Below, in pieces: positions 31,686 to 64,000 of a DNA stretch of 64,000 bases. The stretch's first letter is position 1, and each line of letters opens with the position of its first letter. The stretch comes from a virus. Its lineage: Duplodnaviria > Caudoviricetes. Under the pieces are notes generated by a model that was given only the letters and a program-made list of their open reading frames with translations, was not told where the DNA came from and did not search any database. The position numbers and the translations under genes are program-made. The stretch lies in IMG/VR virus record IMGVR_UViG_3300031151_000426; one strand, written 5' to 3'.

Positions 31686-31709
31686 AAAAAACCCGCCGGA
31701 TGGCGGGTT
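31686..31709 (-). terminator. Terminator inside the tail operon
   Basis: AACCCGCC/GGCGGGTT plus U-run. Confidence 0.7.
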
Positions 31710-31888
31710 ACTGATCAAATATCAGGATATAAATTATCAGGTGTTGGTGTTACACCTTTTTCGGCTCATCTTGATGGCAATAGTCTTTAAGAACGATTTT
31801 TGCCTCTCCATAAAAGACCAAAGCCAACAAAGTTCCAGCCAGTGACCATATAGCATTAATTCTTTTCCGGAAGGAGCCGCCAAAGGTT

Positions 31889-32254
31889 ATGACTAAATCA
31901 GTTTTCAAAGTACGCCTCTCAAAATCCATAGGGGAAGAATTGATCCCTTACATCGAGGATGTTATCCCCGCTGAAGCCCGGAAAATGGGTGTAAGGGCGC
32001 GGGTAGGTGATTCAGCACCGTCTGCATCATCACCCGCATCGGTGATACTCGGGTATATTTTTGAATTTATTCAAAACAAAGATGTTTGCTACAGCGTTGC
32101 TGCTGTTGTTGCTGCATGGATTCGAGCAAAACACAGCAAGAAGATAATTATCAAAAAAGGTGGCTACAAAATAGAAGCAAGCAACCTCACTGATGAACAA
32201 CTTTTTAAGCTATTCAGTGAGGCTAAAGAAGAAATTGAGATCAAAAAGGAATGA
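31889..32254 (+). CDS. Inverted moron, hypothetical protein
   Basis: 121 aa, opposite strand, lower GC than the neighbours. Confidence 0.7.
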   Translation: MTKSVFKVRLSKSIGEELIPYIEDVIPAEARKMGVRARVGDSAPSASSPASVILGYIFEFIQNKDVCYSVAAVVAAWIRAKHSKKIIIKKGGYKIEASNLTDEQLFKLFSEAKEEIEIKKE

Positions 32255-32273
32255 TTAAACTAAGTGCCTGCCT

Positions 32274-32621
32274 TCAACCAGGCACTTTCTTACACGGGAA
32301 AGATCCGATGATTCTCGGCGCGTCCATGCTGTTCTGCAGCAGCTGGACGTTCAGGAAACGGGTTTCGGTACCAGGGCGATGGATATACTCAAACCCATAG
32401 TTGTTGCCATCTTTAGCAGGCATCAGTCCCATTTTGATTTGCATGCCTGTACCGTCTTTGCCCAGCATCTTAACTTTTTGGGATGTTACGGTTTCGCCAT
32501 TGATTTTAAACAATGAGTCAGGGATCGCGTCCATACGAAAATTACCACATTGCATCGTTATGGTCTTTGCACTTGCGCCAACAGACGCTAACACCAGTAA
32601 TGAAAAAATCCATCGTTTCAT
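32274..32621 (-). CDS. Secreted hypothetical protein
   Basis: Signal peptide MKRWIFSLLVLASVGASA. Confidence 0.7.
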   Translation of the reverse strand: MKRWIFSLLVLASVGASAKTITMQCGNFRMDAIPDSLFKINGETVTSQKVKMLGKDGTGMQIKMGLMPAKDGNNYGFEYIHRPGTETRFLNVQLLQNSMDAPRIIGSFPCKKVPG

Positions 32622-32623
32622 TT

Positions 32624-33688
32624 CTATAAACCCCTCTGCAATGCGGTGCTCGATGGCATATCCTGCGCGCCACGCGCTTCGCACATCATATCCATGTACC
32701 ACGCCTGGCCCCTTGTGTCGCCAGTGTACATAATCCCGCGCACAATATAAACGCCATCCGTTGCGATGCTTGCAGGCTGCGCCGTGGTGCCGCTGAGCGT
32801 GATATTTCCGTCCGTGTTCTGGTCGGTGATGCGGCCACCAGCCATCGCGATATCATTGTTCGACAGCGCGGTGCGGAATACCGAAGCCTGATCCAGCTGA
32901 ATGAGCCCGTTAACCCGGATGTTCGGGTTAATCAGTGCGCGGACGTTTACGCCGTTGCCGATAGTCTGCTGCGGCATACCGATAAGCCCGGTGGCGCTGT
33001 TGAGCACAATCGCGTCGTGAACATACTCGTTATTCGCCACCATCTGCCGCTGGCCGTCCACGAACTGCCATGTTGCACCGCATTGTCCGGCCACGTTGTC
33101 CATAAGATGCCGTGTCATGCCGAACAGCACCCGGCCACGGGGAAACACGGTAGCAGGCATTTCAGGCGTCAGGCCTTCGGTCGCGCCTTTGGCCTCGAAG
33201 TCTTTCATCAGCGCGCGGTTCACGTCTGCGACCGTGTAACCGGCTGCCAGCGTCTGCGAGGTTATGCTGGTGGCAAACGCCAGATCCGTATCGGCTGCCT
33301 GAATCAGGACGTAGGAATCAATGGGGCTGTCTTTTCCTGTGACCGAGTAGCGAATTTCACCGCTGAAAATCAGTCCGTAGTTCCGGCCATCACTCTGGCC
33401 CACGTCCGCCGCGTCGACTTCGCGCACGGTCCCGACATCGCTTGCCGACACCTCCGGCGCGATTCCGTCGTAACCGGCAATTAGCCGCACCTTAGAAAAC
33501 TCCTGCCCGGTGATGCGGTTCACCGTATCAGCTGACAGGTTGTAAATTTTGAACGTTCCAACCCGTGACGCGCTGCTGATGTTGAACCAGTCGATCGTAA
33601 AGGTCACTTTAAAATCGCCGAGCTCGATACCCTGCCCGTTCTCGTCCACGAGCTGCAGCTCGAAATGTCTCATCCAGTTCTGTGACAT
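32624..33688 (-). CDS. Baseplate hub protein
   Basis: IYNLS, L.AGY and GDTRG..WY; position fits. Confidence 0.8.
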   Translation of the reverse strand: MSQNWMRHFELQLVDENGQGIELGDFKVTFTIDWFNISSASRVGTFKIYNLSADTVNRITGQEFSKVRLIAGYDGIAPEVSASDVGTVREVDAADVGQSDGRNYGLIFSGEIRYSVTGKDSPIDSYVLIQAADTDLAFATSITSQTLAAGYTVADVNRALMKDFEAKGATEGLTPEMPATVFPRGRVLFGMTRHLMDNVAGQCGATWQFVDGQRQMVANNEYVHDAIVLNSATGLIGMPQQTIGNGVNVRALINPNIRVNGLIQLDQASVFRTALSNNDIAMAGGRITDQNTDGNITLSGTTAQPASIATDGVYIVRGIMYTGDTRGQAWYMDMMCEARGAQDMPSSTALQRGL

Positions 33689-48571: not shown

Positions 48572-48817
48572 ACGCTTACCTGAAATCGAGTGCTGTTTAT
48601 ATTTTGTTCAAAATTATTTTTCCGCATTTTGCGTGCGGAATAATTCTGAGAAAAAATCTGCTCCGGGGCCGCAAGCCTGCTGGGTTTAAGTGCGGAATTA
48701 AAAACGTCAAAAAATGCGGAGTTATCTATTTTCCGTAAAAACTGCGATTTGATGCCCGGAGGCCGCGCAGAATGGGGAGATAGTGGATCGCCCTAATATT
48801 TCCACTATGTGGATAAC

Positions 48818-49831
48818 TCAGTCCAAATCCATCTCCACCACCTCACCGAACAGGTGACCGTATACGTCCATTGTTGTTTTGATGTTCGAATGCCCAATAA
48901 GTCGGGAAACCTTCAAGATATCGACGCCTTTGTTTGCCAGTCGAGATACAGCAAAGTGGCGAAGATGATGGAATCGCTTAATGCCATAGTCGTTCAGAGT
49001 TCTGACGAGAACGCCCTGAGTGCCGTAACTGGTAGCGAGGCATGCGCCGGTAAACTTGTTGCAGATAAGAGGCTCAGAGGTACCGAGTTTACTTTTATCC
49101 AGCAACGCGAAAAGCTCACGCGGCATCCGTACCCGGCGCTCCACTCCTCTTTTCAGTCCCTCATGTATAACGCCGTCAACAACATGCCCCCGAATGTCGA
49201 TCCAGTCGGCTGATACGTCGTTATACGTAACCGCCAGAGCCTCACCGATGCGCAGGCCACAAATCCCGAGCCAGCACGCGATACGCTCACGAACTGGCGC
49301 GTTATTCAGTAGCTCCCTGACCGATGATGATGGCGGTATGGTGATAGGCCGACGCTTCCGGCGCGCGGGACGGTCAACAGGGTTAAAAGTGATGAGCCGC
49401 TTTTCCACCAGCAGGAAAAAAGCCGAACGAATCCAGCGATGGCAGCCGGTGCGAACCGAATCAACGATATCGCGATGGCTGATATGGAGAATGTTTTTTT
49501 CCAGTATCGGCCCGTCTACAGCGAGAAGATCGTGACGGCATTTCGTATATGACGAGAGCCGTATGATATTTTTTTCCAGCTTGCCGGCCTGATACCCCAG
49601 ATAAAACAGAATTAACTTTCGGAAAGACCAGGAATGGTCTATTCCGGTCCAGCTGGCAGTTCGACAATCCAGCTCGATATTCTGTTTTTGCCAGAAAAGA
49701 TGTGCAGCATCATCAATATTCTTAAAAATGCGACGGCGTCCATGACCGGATTTCTCATCCTTCCAGTGGACGTAATATTTTGATTGTCCATTGGCATCAG
49801 TGGATTCTTTTATCGAAGCCATGCTGAACAA
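48818..49831 (-). CDS. Second tyrosine recombinase, in the late operon
   Basis: GLRIGE (R), K, HHLRH, IGHS and T..VYGH: complete catalytic set. Confidence 0.9.
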   Translation of the reverse strand: MFSMASIKESTDANGQSKYYVHWKDEKSGHGRRRIFKNIDDAAHLFWQKQNIELDCRTASWTGIDHSWSFRKLILFYLGYQAGKLEKNIIRLSSYTKCRHDLLAVDGPILEKNILHISHRDIVDSVRTGCHRWIRSAFFLLVEKRLITFNPVDRPARRKRRPITIPPSSSVRELLNNAPVRERIACWLGICGLRIGEALAVTYNDVSADWIDIRGHVVDGVIHEGLKRGVERRVRMPRELFALLDKSKLGTSEPLICNKFTGACLATSYGTQGVLVRTLNDYGIKRFHHLRHFAVSRLANKGVDILKVSRLIGHSNIKTTMDVYGHLFGEVVEMDLD

Positions 49832-49889
49832 TCCTCACTCAAAAAGCATTACATAAACCACTTAGTGAATGGCTTTTGTAATGCCAATG

Positions 49890-49913
49890 AAAAAAGCCAC
49901 TTCAAGTGGCTTT
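49890..49913 (-). terminator. Terminator upstream of the late recombinase
   Basis: AAAGCCAC-TTCAA-GTGGCTTT plus U-run. Confidence 0.75.
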
Positions 49914-49948
49914 GTGATGTCAATGTAACGTCTTGAGGGAGCTAACCC

Positions 49949-50149
49949 TCATTTATTCATCGCTGCCTGAATCGCATCTGCCAACGCATCAATGTTAGCA
50001 ATTGCATGCTTCATATCCCTATCGAGCTTTTCTTTACCGTCATAGTTAGTTGAGGCGGATACTGATGATTTAATGATTTCAAGCGCGGCATTAACAATCT
50101 CACCACGGTTTCGTTCTTCTTTAGTTGAGTAAGCGTAATTCTCAAACAT
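49949..50149 (-). CDS. Small hypothetical protein (moron-like)
   Basis: 66 aa, GGAG SD, AT-rich upstream region. Confidence 0.65.
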   Translation of the reverse strand: MFENYAYSTKEERNRGEIVNAALEIIKSSVSASTNYDGKEKLDRDMKHAIANIDALADAIQAAMNK

Positions 50150-50250
50150 GTCTAATCTCCATATAAACCATGCGTTTCATGGTGCTTTTATATTGGTGAT
50201 GAAATCATTAATTTCAATACGTTGAGCTACTTAAATTTTCAAACTGTGCA

Positions 50251-50766
50251 TCACTTCCGTTCTTGCTCGATTTGGCGTATACCAGCCAGCTGGTTATTCG
50301 CTTTTTCGATAGTGGCCAGCAGCGGCTTTATCCAGAGAACAGTCTGGCAATACGTCAGCGTGCTGGGGGGAGTGGCACGATCACCGGCTGCGTCAGCGTA
50401 CCCGGAATCGGTGTGCATTGCGCTGGCACGTAAACGGTGCGCGTATTCGAGCAGCCCACCAGCGACATCAGCAGGAACAGGCAGATCACAAGTCTTTTCA
50501 CGGCGGAGAATCTCCCGGTATTCGATAACAGTTTTTTCAGTGCTGACGTCAATCAGGGAATTCAGCATGTTGGCGTGTTCTGCAATCTGATTGAACCGAT
50601 TGAAGTTGAAGGCCTGAGTGGCAATAACCTGCCCCTGCAAAGCGTTGTCACTCCGTAAAACGTCGTTATCACTCTGTATGCTGCTGGCGTATGAGCAACT
50701 TTTAACGAGCGCGATTGAGAGACCCGCAATGATGACTACTGCTATTGGGAAAGGAGTCAATTTCAC
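50251..50766 (-). CDS. i-spanin (Rz/LysB-like)
   Basis: N-terminal TM segment plus coiled coil; follows endolysin. Confidence 0.8.
   Translation of the reverse strand: MKLTPFPIAVVIIAGLSIALVKSCSYASSIQSDNDVLRSDNALQGQVIATQAFNFNRFNQIAEHANMLNSLIDVSTEKTVIEYREILRREKTCDLPVPADVAGGLLEYAHRLRASAMHTDSGYADAAGDRATPPSTLTYCQTVLWIKPLLATIEKANNQLAGIRQIEQERK
50355..50501 (-). CDS. Embedded o-spanin-like lipoprotein
   Basis: GTG-KRLVICLFLLMSLVGC lipobox followed by a Pro-rich segment. Confidence 0.65.
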   Translation of the reverse strand: MKRLVICLFLLMSLVGCSNTRTVYVPAQCTPIPGTLTQPVIVPLPPAR

Positions 50767-50779
50767 AGGACATTCCACC

Positions 50780-51409
50780 TCAGACCAGCACGGATTTTGC
50801 CAGGTTAAACAGCGCGCGGCGTTTTTCAAGCCCGTTATTGCCGCCATTGATAAGCAGCGTTACGCGCTCAACATCGCCGGAGTGAAGCAGGCAACCGCGA
50901 GACACATAAAACCACGCAGCGGAACGGGCGGCGTGCTCATCAACCTCCAACAATTCAGGATGCGCCACCAAGTCAAGTTTTAGCGCCTGGCCGCAGCTGC
51001 GATAGTTGCTCAGACCAGTGATTTGCTTCAGTCCCCGACCGCGATATTTCCAGCCATCACCAGCGACCTGATTCCCCAGTTTCTCTTTGCCCCACTCGCC
51101 GCCGTATACCAGATTGGCAATCGCTTTCTGGTTGGCTGGTTGTGTTGCCGTTCTACCGAGCGCGGCTGCCTGCTGGGGAGAGATTCGGTGCCTGCCAAAT
51201 ATGGGGACCAGGTTTTCAGCCGCATAGTTCAGGCTTTCCACCAGCCGGGTATACCCGCCTGACTCATGCCCCATCTGTGCGATAAACATGGCCTGATCGA
51301 GCGGTGCCGTGATGCCGAATTCATTCATGGCAGCTTCGATCTGTGGAAACCAGCGCGAAGCGAGCCCGGCGCTAATGCCAGCCGCCTTTTGAAATTGTGA
51401 TTGGTTCAT
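50780..51409 (-). CDS. Endolysin, GH19 family
   Basis: AQMGHES, YRGRGLKQITG and INGG.NGL. Confidence 0.92.
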   Translation of the reverse strand: MNQSQFQKAAGISAGLASRWFPQIEAAMNEFGITAPLDQAMFIAQMGHESGGYTRLVESLNYAAENLVPIFGRHRISPQQAAALGRTATQPANQKAIANLVYGGEWGKEKLGNQVAGDGWKYRGRGLKQITGLSNYRSCGQALKLDLVAHPELLEVDEHAARSAAWFYVSRGCLLHSGDVERVTLLINGGNNGLEKRRALFNLAKSVLV

Positions 51410-52990: not shown

Positions 52991-53794
52991 CTAAATTTTG
53001 TTCACATTATCACGAAAGCTCGTTGCGTCCTGAAACGCCGAGTCTGCTTTTTGTTCTTCCCTGTGGCAGACATCGACAAGCACCTCCAGAAACGGCTTCC
53101 AGTTACGGGTCCACGTTCTGACGTGCAGATCCGGGACTCGTTTCAGTATCACTTTATAGGCTGCAGTAGACGGCACCCCAGAAAATCCATTTCCGCTGCA
53201 GCGCTCGCAGGTTTTGAACACCGGCGCGCCACGCTCACTTGTGGCTTTGCGGTCGAGCACCTCACCTTTTCCGCCGCAACGGCATCGGGCCAACAGCTTA
53301 CCTTTACCGTTACATGCCGCGCATTTACGCTTGACCAGTTCGTGCTTGATTTTCGGCGGGACGATTTCCATTCCGTCAGAGTTGAAGACTCCGGGATATT
53401 TGATCACATCTTCATACTGAGAGGTTAATCCGCTGCCGCTACAGCTGTGACACGTCACGCTGGTTTCCGCTGAACGGGAGTATTCTGCAAAGGCGAATTG
53501 TGCCAGCATCTGCATGCACCATCCGAACTGCCCACCAGCTGCTTTGCGAACATTCTTTGGTGCCGCGTCCATCGCATATCGCGCCAGCGCCTGAACTGCG
53601 AGCTGTTCATCCGTTTTGCTGATACCAGCCTTTCCGAAGAAAGCAGCCAGGCCGAAGCGCGCACGGCTGCTGGTGGTGCCAATCGCCGCCATTACATCTG
53701 TACCGGTAAGACGATCCGGAGAGGTTCCTTTCACGTCGTCGCTGATGTGCATACCCTGAGGGCTGAAATGTTTGAGTGATGCTTCCAACTTCAT
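52991..53794 (-). CDS. Late antitermination protein Q
   Basis: K.FSP..., LTGTDVMAA.G, CxxCxGxG zinc fingers and W.RNWKPF. Confidence 0.88.
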   Translation of the reverse strand: MKLEASLKHFSPQGMHISDDVKGTSPDRLTGTDVMAAIGTTSSRARFGLAAFFGKAGISKTDEQLAVQALARYAMDAAPKNVRKAAGGQFGWCMQMLAQFAFAEYSRSAETSVTCHSCSGSGLTSQYEDVIKYPGVFNSDGMEIVPPKIKHELVKRKCAACNGKGKLLARCRCGGKGEVLDRKATSERGAPVFKTCERCSGNGFSGVPSTAAYKVILKRVPDLHVRTWTRNWKPFLEVLVDVCHREEQKADSAFQDATSFRDNVNKI

Positions 53795-57602: not shown

Positions 57603-58262
57603 ATGAAAACAGAATGGTATGAACTGGCGAAAGCCAGAATGTCTGAAGTAGGGATTACCCAAGCCCAATTGTCAGAAGAGTTAGGTATTACCCAAGGTGC
57701 TTTGAGCCACTGGCTTAACGGCAGGAGGTCAGCTTCGCTTGCTGAAATAGGCTCGATTTTCCGAATCCTTGGCATCGTTGGAGCAACGCTCAACCTAGAC
57801 GGTTCCTTCACCATAGGATCTAGTCAGCTTTCCGAGCCACCCAAGCCTCATTTCGAATACCCTGTTTTCTCTCACGTTCAGGCTGGTATGTTTTCACCAG
57901 AGTTCAGAACTTTCACTGAGCGGGATGCTGAGAACTGGGTGAGCACGACTAAAAAAGCCAGTGAGAATGCCTTTTGGCTTGAGGTTGACGGTCATTCTAT
58001 GACGGCCCCTACAGGCTCGCGTCCGAGCTTCCCTGAAGGCATGCTTATCTTGGTTGACCCAGAAGCACCTGTTGACCCGGGCGACTTCTGTATCGCTCGC
58101 CTTGGAGGTGATGAATTCACATTTAAGAAGCTGATAAAGGATGGTGGGCAGACCTTCCTTCAGCCACTTAACCCTCAATTTCCAATGATACCTTGCAACG
58201 AGCATTGCAGATTGGTAGGAAAAGTAGTCGCATCTCAATGGCCTGAAGACACTTTCAGCTAA
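57603..58262 (+). CDS. cI: CI repressor (lambda-like)
   Basis: HTH, VQAG.F cleavage site, G.SM.AP.G..PSFP.G and TFKKL. Confidence 0.93.
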
Positions 58263-62747: not shown

Positions 62748-62975
62748 ATGAACAACGAAACAGACATTATCTCTGACGCTGATATTGAAAAGTTGACCGG
62801 TTATAAAATACCGTCTAAGCAATGCGAAAGCTTGCGTGATGCTGGAATATTTTTTATAACGAGGCGCGATGGACGCCCTCGCACAACGTGGGCGCATTTC
62901 AACAATCCGCTTTCTCACCGACAGAAAGCTATTGATGCTAACGGGCCTCAGCCTAACTTTGGAGCTCTTGACTAA
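62748..62975 (+). CDS. Excisionase-like protein (DUF4224)
   Basis: LTGY..PSKQ...L...GIFF..RRDGRP; paralogue of 23626-23853. Confidence 0.85.
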   Translation: MNNETDIISDADIEKLTGYKIPSKQCESLRDAGIFFITRRDGRPRTTWAHFNNPLSHRQKAIDANGPQPNFGALD

Positions 62976-64000
62976 TGCCACGCGCACGTAAAAACAAAGA
63001 CGATGCCTGGATGCCTCCGAGGGTTTACCTCGGGCGTTCAGCCTTTGAGTACCACCCAAAAGGAGGCGGAAACATCCGCCTTTGTGATAAGACCTGTACA
63101 CAGGCTCAGGTCTGGACAGCATGGGAAGCCCTGATTAATGACAGGCCGGATGAGTCAACACTTTCTGGACTGATTGATAAATTTTTCCAGTCTGGAGATT
63201 TTTTTGAACTGGCCGCTGAAACACAGAAGGATTACCGCAAATACTCCAAAAAGATAATCGATGTTTTCGGGCAGATGCCACCAGACAGCATTAAGCCTGA
63301 ACACGTACGTAAATACCTTGATAAACGTGGCGTAAAGAGTCGAACCCAAGCCAATCGGGAAAAGGCTTTTATGTCACGCGTGTATCGCTGGGCTTACGAA
63401 CGCGGCTATGCCAAGGGAAACCCCACAAAAGGGGTTAAGCAATTTAAAGAGACTGGCCGGGATCGCTATATCACGCACGAAGAGTACAACGCCTTATTTA
63501 GCGTTTCTCCCGATGTGGTGCGTGTTGCTATGGAGCTGGCCTATCTGTGCTGCGCACGTCAAAACGACGTCCTTGAGATGAAGAAAAGCCAGCTTATGGC
63601 TGAAGGAATACTGATTAAGCAGAGCAAAACTGCAGTCGCGCAGATAAAAGCCTGGTCAGACAGACTGAGAGCAGCAATTGACCTTGCCAAAGCCCTTCCC
63701 CTCAACGAGGGTATGAGCAGCCTGTTTATTCTTCATCAACCTACCGGGCACAAATACACCCGCGATGGTTTCAACAGCCGATGGAGAAAGGCCAAAGAAG
63801 AAGCGCGGATCAAATACCCGCACTTGAGTTTTGACTTCACATTTCATGACCTGAAAGCAAAAGGCATCTCAGACCTGCAAGGGAATATTTACGAGAAACA
63901 GGCTATCTCAGGACACAAAAACGTGGAGCAAACAGCACGGTATGATCGCAAAATTGCTGTAGTTCCGGTTGTTGGTGGTCAATATAATATTATGAAGTGA
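62975..64000 (+). CDS. int: Tyrosine integrase of prophage 2
   Basis: Close paralogue of the prophage 1 integrase (CARQ, QSKT, FHDLKAKG, SGH, ARY); stop codon at 63998-64000. Confidence 0.93.
   Translation: MPRARKNKDDAWMPPRVYLGRSAFEYHPKGGGNIRLCDKTCTQAQVWTAWEALINDRPDESTLSGLIDKFFQSGDFFELAAETQKDYRKYSKKIIDVFGQMPPDSIKPEHVRKYLDKRGVKSRTQANREKAFMSRVYRWAYERGYAKGNPTKGVKQFKETGRDRYITHEEYNALFSVSPDVVRVAMELAYLCCARQNDVLEMKKSQLMAEGILIKQSKTAVAQIKAWSDRLRAAIDLAKALPLNEGMSSLFILHQPTGHKYTRDGFNSRWRKAKEEARIKYPHLSFDFTFHDLKAKGISDLQGNIYEKQAISGHKNVEQTARYDRKIAVVPVVGGQYNIMK

Follow-up and report, generated by a model that had tools for sequence, protein, structure and literature searches.

A gene for a tyrosine recombinase and a small terminase gene, terS, stand side by side in a 64,000-nt stretch of viral DNA ("the window"), which is part of the 81-kb IMG/VR provirus record IMGVR_UViG_3300031151_000426. 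The same pair recurs in every informative viral contig that carries this terS family. A palindrome, termed S, is located directly behind the recombinase stop codon and is the best candidate for the site at which the enzyme acts. We propose, with a probability of roughly 40%, that this late enzyme carries out recombination between sister phage genomes, at a site next to pac, and so yields the DNA forms that are needed for headful packaging.

The elements of this locus are as follows.

48818-49822, minus strand: tyrosine recombinase, 334 amino acids, located between the lysis genes and terS
48780-48808: palindrome S, candidate recombinase site, linked to the recombinase 3' end, with clade-specific versions in the same position
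48738-48750, minus strand: invariant 13-mer AAATCGCAGTTTT (gene orientation), junction of the recombinase block and the terS block
48715-48720, 48691-48696 and 48634-48639, minus strand: TCCGCA repeats, gene-orientation copies, within 48621-48720
48621-48626: inverted TCCGCA copy, within 48621-48720
47969-48571, minus strand: small terminase terS with an N-terminal helix-turn-helix (HTH), obligate neighbor of the recombinase gene

The module thus consists of the recombinase gene with its own terminator and S, joined at the invariant 13-mer to putative TerS-binding repeats (a probable pac) and terS.

Linkage of the recombinase gene to terS

Loci were first fetched with the recombinase as query and their neighbors tabulated, after which the linkage was tested in reverse from terS (alignment A2). 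In loci retrieved with the recombinase, the upstream side, which contains lysis and cargo genes, is variable. The downstream side always carries the same terS family at a near-constant distance; the spacer is ~245 bp long, and measures 244-247 bp in 62/72 loci. When terS was the query, the recombinase was found upstream in 69/69 informative IMG/VR viral contigs; 8 further terS loci are uninformative because the contig ends too near terS. An initial annotation of the window had described the recombinase as packaging-linked, and this linkage holds. The reading that it is a sporadic insertion is refuted by the same count, together with the absence of any broken gene among 77 complete distinct copies.

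Other collections give the same picture. Complete Escherichia coli genomes rarely have a match (5/5426), and both genes are present in all five. In a family-wide genome sample, terS was detected in 4/401 genomes, which is too few for a co-occurrence test. Only three records of a phage collection contain the terS family, and they are also the three with the best recombinase matches. One of them, YP3 (PV092592.1), is scrambled and has the recombinase and terS at separate places. This record looks mis-assembled (L201:1500-1880, L001:5990-7130): at one place the recombinase is joined straight to terL, with the spacer cut past the 13-mer, and at the other the order is Rz, palindrome, spacer and terS, with the recombinase open reading frame (ORF) gone from start to stop. 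The last 70 bp of the YP3 spacer are tandemly duplicated. We counted YP3 as a clean case neither for nor against linkage. The record OM284015.1 (phage EKP1) is labelled an Elizabethkingia phage, and carries the recombinase (77% identity), terS (73%) and lysis genes of the Enterobacterales prophage type; judged by these genes, its stated host may be wrong.

The pairing is retained down to 25-43% identity, with three types of large terminase, in integrated prophages as well as phage-plasmids. Adjacency is kept in locus L151 (recombinase 43%, terS 40%, Terminase_3-type terL), in locus L152 (recombinase 42%, terS 52%, Terminase_6-type terL), in Erwinia phage LS-2018a (recombinase 31%), and in Arsenophonus and Providencia phage-plasmids (29-35%). 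Sodalis phiSG1 (25%) has the order lysis genes, recombinase, terS homologue, terminase and portal. Distant homologues also reside on plasmids of 28-104 kb from Arsenophonus, Yersinia, Erwinia and Providencia, of which 26/27 are typed as non-mobilizable; the 2/27 plasmid records that were read in context (Arsenophonus, Providencia) are both phage-plasmids. No recombinase was found in phages that have an 80% identical terL and another terS family (SEN34, vB_EcoM-606R2 and Hafnia yong1). Therefore, the partner of the recombinase is terS, and not terL.

A palindrome inherited with the recombinase

The palindrome ATAGTGGA-N13-TCCACTAT occupies 48780-48808 and begins 9 bases past the recombinase stop codon, where the initial annotation had placed a candidate core site. 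It is single in the window, and 0/100 shuffles gave a match. However, about 2.7% of random 82-nt windows drawn from this sequence contain an inverted repeat as good as S. Taken alone, S is no more than mildly unusual; what lends it weight is its conserved position, together with its clade-specific versions. The palindrome is perfect in 47/68 unique spacers. In the clade with 58% identity, two double changes preserve its symmetry (ATATCCGA/TTGGCTAT). Other clades have different arms in the same place with a gap of 11-14 bp, such as GTAAGGAG-N11-CTCCTTAC, which overlaps the stop codon, and TTTAACC-N14-GGTTAAA in Arsenophonus.

As an RNA hairpin, S folds no better than shuffled sequences (z +0.59), and the minimum-energy fold pairs other bases. 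Because it is not stable as an RNA hairpin, we read S as a protein-binding palindrome; it is the best candidate, though not a proven one, for the recombinase site. S stands alone beside the gene and no different kind of partner site was found, an arrangement of the Cre/loxP type.

The inheritance of S was followed in a matrix of squared correlations (r2) computed from 61 unique recombinase-spacer-terS sequences, which resolves two blocks. Block 1 comprises the recombinase 3' end, S and about 50 bp past the stop codon; block 2 extends from about 85 bp past the stop codon through the 5' part of terS. S has an r2 of 0.6-0.9 with the recombinase 3' end, and of about 0 with the terS block. S is thus inherited with the recombinase and not with terS, and the suggestion that it serves the recombinase stands as a fair one. 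The linkage break falls between window positions 48767 and 48733, an interval that contains the invariant 13-mer. Counts of four-gamete violations at adjacent sites along the recombinase, spacer and terS indicate recombination or homoplasy everywhere and give no hot spot, whereas the r2 matrix did localize the break.

Three terS alleles are freely combined with recombinase alleles across this junction. In a contig from run X17, an alternative spacer allele is swapped in exactly over 48574-48737; among the contigs from sequencing runs, those of RNA libraries are 14-30 kb long and may represent DNA. In locus L144, a window-type recombinase (72%) is joined at the 13-mer to a third, distant terS allele. 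This locus has TCCGAG repeats in place of TCCGCA, and so does L152, whose recombinase is only 42% identical. Because L144 and L152 share TCCGAG despite their differing recombinases, the repeats follow terS and not the recombinase. From this pattern, the TCCGCA repeats are predicted to be TerS recognition sites, and thus probably constitute the pac region. Directly past the invariant 13-mer (window 48733-48750), every allele has a palindrome of a T-run and an A-run (T4-6, 2-5 nt, A4-6).

The recombinase protein

The ORF at 48818-49831 (minus strand), which had been described as an intact recombinase, is real and its catalytic set is complete. Homologues share an ATG start at 49822 (MASIKE..., 334 amino acids); the TTG start that would give 337 amino acids is not the conserved one. 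The protein matches Pfam Phage_integrase (PF00589) with 57.3 bits against a cut-off of 27.1 (E 2.2e-15), and residues R191, K224, H285, R288, H311 and Y321 are unchanged across 26 homologues. It had also been called unlike either integrase of the prophage; a search of the whole 81-kb record with the recombinase returned only itself at E ≤ 0.001. None of 81 distinct DNA copies of the gene is broken: 77 are intact and the other 4 run off the ends of their contigs. The ratio of nonsynonymous to synonymous substitution rates (dN/dS) is 0.03-0.14 in four comparisons; by these measures, the gene is under strong purifying selection.

An AlphaFold model of the recombinase (predicted local distance difference test, pLDDT, 89) has three domains.

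Residues 2-52: N-terminal three-strand sheet plus helix
Residues 67-140: core-binding helices
Residues 165-334: catalytic domain

In the N-terminal domain, strands span residues 2-8, 14-21 and 28-33 and are followed by a helix from residue 36, a fold that is retained when the domain is modelled alone. Over the whole chain, the solved structures that match best are those of full-length lambda Int and of Tn1549 Int (5j0n, 1z1b, 6emy; E 2e-9 to 1e-8), whereas Cre structures (1crx, 3crx and others) are far weaker matches (Foldseek E about 3e-5, template modelling score, TM, 0.37). A fold search with the N-terminal 65 residues alone gave generic matches only (best Z 5.8; AP2/ERF 2gcc, Z 4.8), and a Pfam search of the N-terminal and middle parts gave nothing useful. 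The modelled N-terminal domain is likely to be an arm-binding domain, although this is unconfirmed.

Several other identities were tried and rejected. The recombinase scores 28.2 and 25.8 bits against the NCBIfam models for XerC and XerD (TIGR02224/TIGR02225), whose cut-offs are 335 and 330; 36.3 bits against 265 and 24.8 against 435 for the integron integrase models (TIGR02249, NF011946); and far under the cut-off for XerA. A match in Bacillus prophage phBC6A52 is an ordinary integrase at the prophage end. Against the PADLOC defense families, 0 matches were obtained for the recombinase, for TerS, for the small gene upstream or for the neighbors of a paralogous recombinase. The product is most likely a tyrosine recombinase of the phage-integrase type that is active and expressed late.

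Insulated, late position

The recombinase gene had been placed in the late operon, downstream of a terminator, and this position is borne out by two terminator-like hairpins upstream of the gene.

49893-49913, minus strand: terminator-like hairpin with a 9-bp stem and a T-run, after the phrog_5901 gene and upstream of the recombinase (from a scan of the sequence)
49846-49884, minus strand: conserved hairpin followed by a T-run, 25-65 nt before the recombinase start, at the left edge of the conserved module

The second hairpin has a 7-bp stem, in which three pairs are changed on both sides with pairing kept in 6-10 of 26 sequences. DNA upstream of it is unrelated from locus to locus, and the hairpin is probably the own terminator, or insulator, of the recombinase gene. 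No sigma-70-like promoter was found in 47800-50400. Because two hairpins precede the gene and no such promoter was found, the recombinase looks shielded from upstream transcription and reliant on terminator read-through. Such a dependence would fit a Q-dependent late gene.

A paralogous clade with a similar unit

The baseplate gene cluster has a cargo slot that houses paralogous recombinases (44-45% identical; L154, L155, L156 and L017). L154 shares its 97.7-kb contig with L109, a terS-linked copy, and the L154 cassette has the following order.

L154:4695-8062: lipoprotein-like ORF, 194-amino-acid ORF, recombinase, palindrome, CCGCAT repeats, 174-amino-acid double-HTH protein, 62-amino-acid ORF

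The paralogues have their own palindrome at the stop codon as well as CCGCAT/ATGCGG repeats, and the 174-amino-acid protein encoded 3' of the recombinase has an N-terminal HTH similar to the one in TerS (hhalign probability 69%, E 4e-5). These resemblances suggest that the conserved unit may be recombinase, palindrome, repeats and TerS-like DNA binder.

A possible role in headful packaging

If S is the target of the recombinase, the question is with what it recombines. Searches of the window, the full 81-kb record and four host genomes with such prophages, which would miss a core of 7-15 bp, turned up no second copy of S or of the 80-bp left block. Downstream of the recombinase, all loci that extend far enough run on into a terS-type gene, so that no lysogen split at S was found; nor is there an excisionase gene beside the recombinase. 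With neither a partner site nor a split lysogen, S x S recombination between sister genomes, or action at a single site, remain. Because there is only one S per genome and no host copy was found, the reaction left to the enzyme is S x S between sister genomes.

Such a reaction would fuse monomer circles into multimers, or would recombine direct repeats of S in concatemers or in terminally redundant DNA. It would be timed with packaging and placed directly beside pac. The recombinase might thereby supply a multimeric substrate, or re-circularization, for headful packaging where a general recombination system is absent. Making multimers from circles fits better than re-circularization at entry, because expression looks late-only. 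We infer the identity of S as the site, the S x S reaction, its direction, headful packaging and the benefit to the phage. A fuller version of this mechanism, which we regard as doubtful, holds that the two proteins make up a packaging-initiation module not described before: TerS on its repeats positions the recombinase at S, where monomeric circles of the phage or phage-plasmid are fused, or the enzyme remains bound to the DNA that is packaged. Site-specific recombination, and not rolling-circle replication or general recombination, would then make the headful substrate in this group of Enterobacterales phages.

The gene content of these phages is consistent with such a need. No recognizable genes for Erf, RecT, Red-beta, Rad52-like proteins, exonuclease or Gam are present in the prophage of the window. 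Six general-recombination families were searched in 34 recombinase-bearing records, namely the record of the window itself, 32 IMG/VR contigs of at least 35 kb, and phage EKP1; 22 virus records among them, including that of the window, are at least 90% complete by CheckV.

RecT: 0/34 recombinase-bearing records
ERF: 0/34 recombinase-bearing records
Rad52: 0/34 recombinase-bearing records
Bet: 0/34 recombinase-bearing records
YqaJ exonuclease: 0/34 recombinase-bearing records
AAA_24 (Sak4-like): 1/34 recombinase-bearing records

Thus, 33/34 records matched none of the six families. Among relatives that have the same terL family and no recombinase, a general-recombination protein is present in 2/3: SEN34 has RecT/Bet and an exonuclease by search (Gam, NinB and Rap are annotated), and yong1 has a Rad52-like protein, while 606R2 matched none of the six families.

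A number of observations weigh against recombination at S in the service of packaging. The scarcity of general recombination genes is suggestive of a site-specific role, not decisive, as the 34 records are interrelated and the control comprises 3 genomes; moreover, one record does have the Sak4-like family. We infer headful packaging from gene families alone (portal PF06381, the Mu-F-like protein, and Terminase_3/6 relatives). No locus was found in which S is split or joined to other DNA, so no recombination product has been observed. The left arm of S is degenerate, with an uncompensated A.C, in 14/68 unique spacers, and no arm-type sites were identified for the recombinase despite an N-terminal domain of the arm-binding kind. 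The mosaic junction lies at the 13-mer, 30-40 bp beyond S and not within it; either exchange between phages is homologous, or the crossover point is other than S. The paralogues lie in the baseplate cluster and not beside terS.

Timing and geometry raise further difficulties. A late-only enzyme would be absent at infection, and so could not re-circularize DNA, and late resolution would counteract packaging. As for geometry, S is situated upstream of terS, and packaging in P22 and P1 runs in the direction of terS transcription. If packaging here also follows terS transcription, S would be outside the terminal redundancy of the first headful. Finally, a serine recombinase encoded next to terL in some phage-plasmids could perform multimer resolution. 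Small serine recombinase genes adjoin terL at L151:9612-10205, L286:8637-9242 and L287:8283-8873, besides the tyrosine recombinase gene upstream of terS.

Alternative explanations

The recombinase might instead be a packaging accessory that acts at S, beside the complex of TerS and pac, and nicks, relaxes or helps to cleave DNA at the start of packaging without recombination, for which the terminase-adjacent HNH endonucleases of HK97-like phages would offer a parallel. The obligate linkage with terS rather than terL, the fixed length of the spacer, the late and insulated expression, and the presence of one S per genome would all suit such a function, as would the paralogous clade, which is likewise paired with a protein that has a TerS-like N-terminal HTH. 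However, the full catalytic set for strand exchange is conserved, and L151 and L152 encode large terminases that already contain an RNaseH-like nuclease domain. Tyrosine recombinases also leave a protein-linked 3' end, for which we know of no use in packaging. We consider this role unlikely.

The sharp linkage break at the 13-mer, across which three terS alleles combine freely with recombinase alleles, invites an explanation in terms of module exchange. In this case the recombinase would promote swaps of packaging or structural modules between co-resident phages at its junction with terS, or would simply hitch-hike at a mosaic boundary, and would serve no purpose within a single infection cycle. 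The mosaic flank upstream of the conserved hairpin, the paralogue in a baseplate cargo slot, and the recombinase-less copy in the scrambled YP3 record that retains S and the spacer are consistent with this idea. Yet a selfish or exchange-promoting gene is hard to reconcile with retention in 69/69 loci, no broken copy, a dN/dS of 0.03-0.14, and adjacency that is kept down to 25% identity. The exchange point is also outside S, and a short conserved box suffices for homologous exchange. This explanation, too, is improbable.

Third, the gene and an attP-like region could constitute a second integration module for another host site. The fold is nearest to full-length lambda Int and Tn1549 Int, the N-terminal sheet and helix fit an arm-binding domain, and phage-plasmid homologues are annotated "site-specific integrase." A site right after the gene, with a spacer of about 245 bp, is also as in int-attP layouts. 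However, the recombinase lies in a late operon behind a conserved terminator with no excisionase alongside, and the prophage is already equipped with a terminal int and xis (62748-64000). Loci with enough downstream sequence include no lysogen split at S, no attB-like copy was found in the 4 host genomes (a short core would escape this search), and the spacer repeats follow terS instead of the recombinase. We assign a second integration function only a slim chance.

Xer-like sites around terL

The initial annotation had also considered that the recombinase might act with host XerD at two nearby Xer-like sites. These sites are in direct orientation and flank terL, the portal gene and the Mu-F-like gene, a distance of 3.9 kb.

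47796-47823, minus strand: dif-like site AGTGCGGGTAA-CGACCA-TTATGTTAAAT
43919-43946, minus strand: dif-like site GGTGCGGGTAA-GAACCC-TTATGTTAAAT

In both, the right arm is an 11-mer that we take to match the XerD-binding arm of E. coli dif exactly, and the sites are kept in many relatives with an invariant right arm and a variable left arm. That the recombinase replaces XerC at these sites is very improbable: the sites follow the terL module, not the recombinase, as 6 loci that carry the recombinase together with another type of terL (L151, L152, L208, L209, L286 and L287) have no convincing site and the recombinase-less Hafnia phage yong1 has one upstream of terL; their left arms are dissimilar to S; and the recombinase reaches 26-28 bits against XerC/XerD cut-offs of 330-335. 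The left arms presumably are acceptable for host XerC itself.

By this distribution, the dif-like sites are a separate feature and not the target of the recombinase. By analogy, they may mark a packaging module that is exchangeable by Xer recombination, comparable to the pdif modules of Acinetobacter plasmids.

Comparison with known systems

Multimer handling is a classic task of recombinases on plasmids, as performed by Cre/loxP of P1, the nearest functional analogue of the proposed system. Like the proposed system, Cre/loxP consists of a tyrosine recombinase of a headful temperate phage or phage-plasmid and a single palindromic site by the gene and near pac. Cre recombines site with site between genome copies, for cyclization and multimer handling, and this is what we propose here. 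The window recombinase differs in having no specific sequence relationship to Cre, an extra N-terminal domain of a sheet plus helix, and a location in a late operon behind a terminator, directly upstream of terS. The cre gene, by contrast, is found a few kb downstream of pac, under promoters of its own.

Lambda Int and Tn1549 Int are the best whole-chain structural matches, share the three-domain layout, and have a site immediately 3' of the gene. In contrast, no attB, arm-type sites or excisionase partner were found for the window recombinase, which is late instead of early and belongs to a prophage that integrates by another integrase. HNH endonucleases are encoded beside terS/terL in HK97-like cos phages, and thus provide another case of a gene for a nucleic-acid enzyme held beside terminase genes in a packaging locus. 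Those enzymes are unrelated in class and chemistry, and the phages have cos ends.

By description only, there is also a likeness to Tyrovirus gp50 and similar proteins of Bacillus and Lactococcus phages. These are tyrosine recombinases encoded inside the structural module, co-oriented with late or structural genes and with an inverted repeat just downstream, and their role is stated to be unknown (PMC9703825). Their genes lie between neck and tape-measure genes and not at terS, and their hosts are other bacteria (PMC9703825).

A preprint on a Yersinia phage-plasmid reports an integrase/recombinase, to which it ascribes no function, as part of a backbone that is related to those of Erwinia LS-2018a and phiSG1 (10.64898/2026.10.03.756212). 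Full-text literature searches found no description of the recombinase-terS pair; an obligate late module of this kind is not described in the literature searched.

Genomic setting

The minus strand of the window encodes a temperate phage that combines a structural module for a contractile tail with lambda-like control. Its other features are as follows.

62748-64000, minus strand: integrase and excisionase (int, xis), end of the prophage
57603-58262, minus strand: repressor
52991-53794, minus strand: Q, followed by two holins and endolysin
50251-50847, minus strand: Rz, co-oriented with the recombinase
49949-50149, minus strand: small phrog_5901 gene, co-oriented with the recombinase
46157-47785, minus strand: large terminase terL

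Genes for an O-like initiator and a primase-helicase are listed between the repressor and Q, and terL is followed on its 3' side by the portal gene, the gene for the Mu-F-like protein, and head and tail genes. At 31687-32702, the cargo slot that corresponds to that of the paralogous recombinases, between the baseplate hub and gpV-like genes, holds a 142-amino-acid lipoprotein-like ORF (phrog_3443) and, on the opposite strand, a 121-amino-acid ORF without a family.

The gap between terS and terL (47830-47960) holds repeated TTATGCAC-like motifs, as does that of yong1 (L290:4294-4513); these motifs may be further terminase recognition elements. This gap, just before the Xer-like site, is also an insertion hot spot (L098, L005, L006, L130, L133 and L158). 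In the IMG/VR contig L098 (L098:7854-11350), ~3.3 kb of extra DNA contains transposase-like ORFs of 322 and 467 amino acids; the other loci with an enlarged gap have 0.3-0.7 kb extra.

Implications

Headful phages require multimeric DNA for packaging, and have to re-circularize their DNA once it is injected. In textbook cases, they achieve this by rolling-circle replication combined with general recombination (Red, Erf, RecT or host RecA) or, in P1, by Cre/loxP. The prophages and phage-plasmids described here, from Enterobacter, Citrobacter, Klebsiella, Erwinia, Yersinia, Arsenophonus, Providencia and Sodalis, have almost no recognizable general recombination genes, and keep a late recombinase at their probable pac/terS locus. 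Whatever the function of this enzyme, its association with one small-terminase family in 69/69 loci constitutes an unexplained rule. If recombination at S does serve packaging, these phages would have a second, independent Cre-like strategy that is wired into the packaging operon. This would explain why this terS never travels alone, and the compact pair of recombinase and site might also be of use as a tool.

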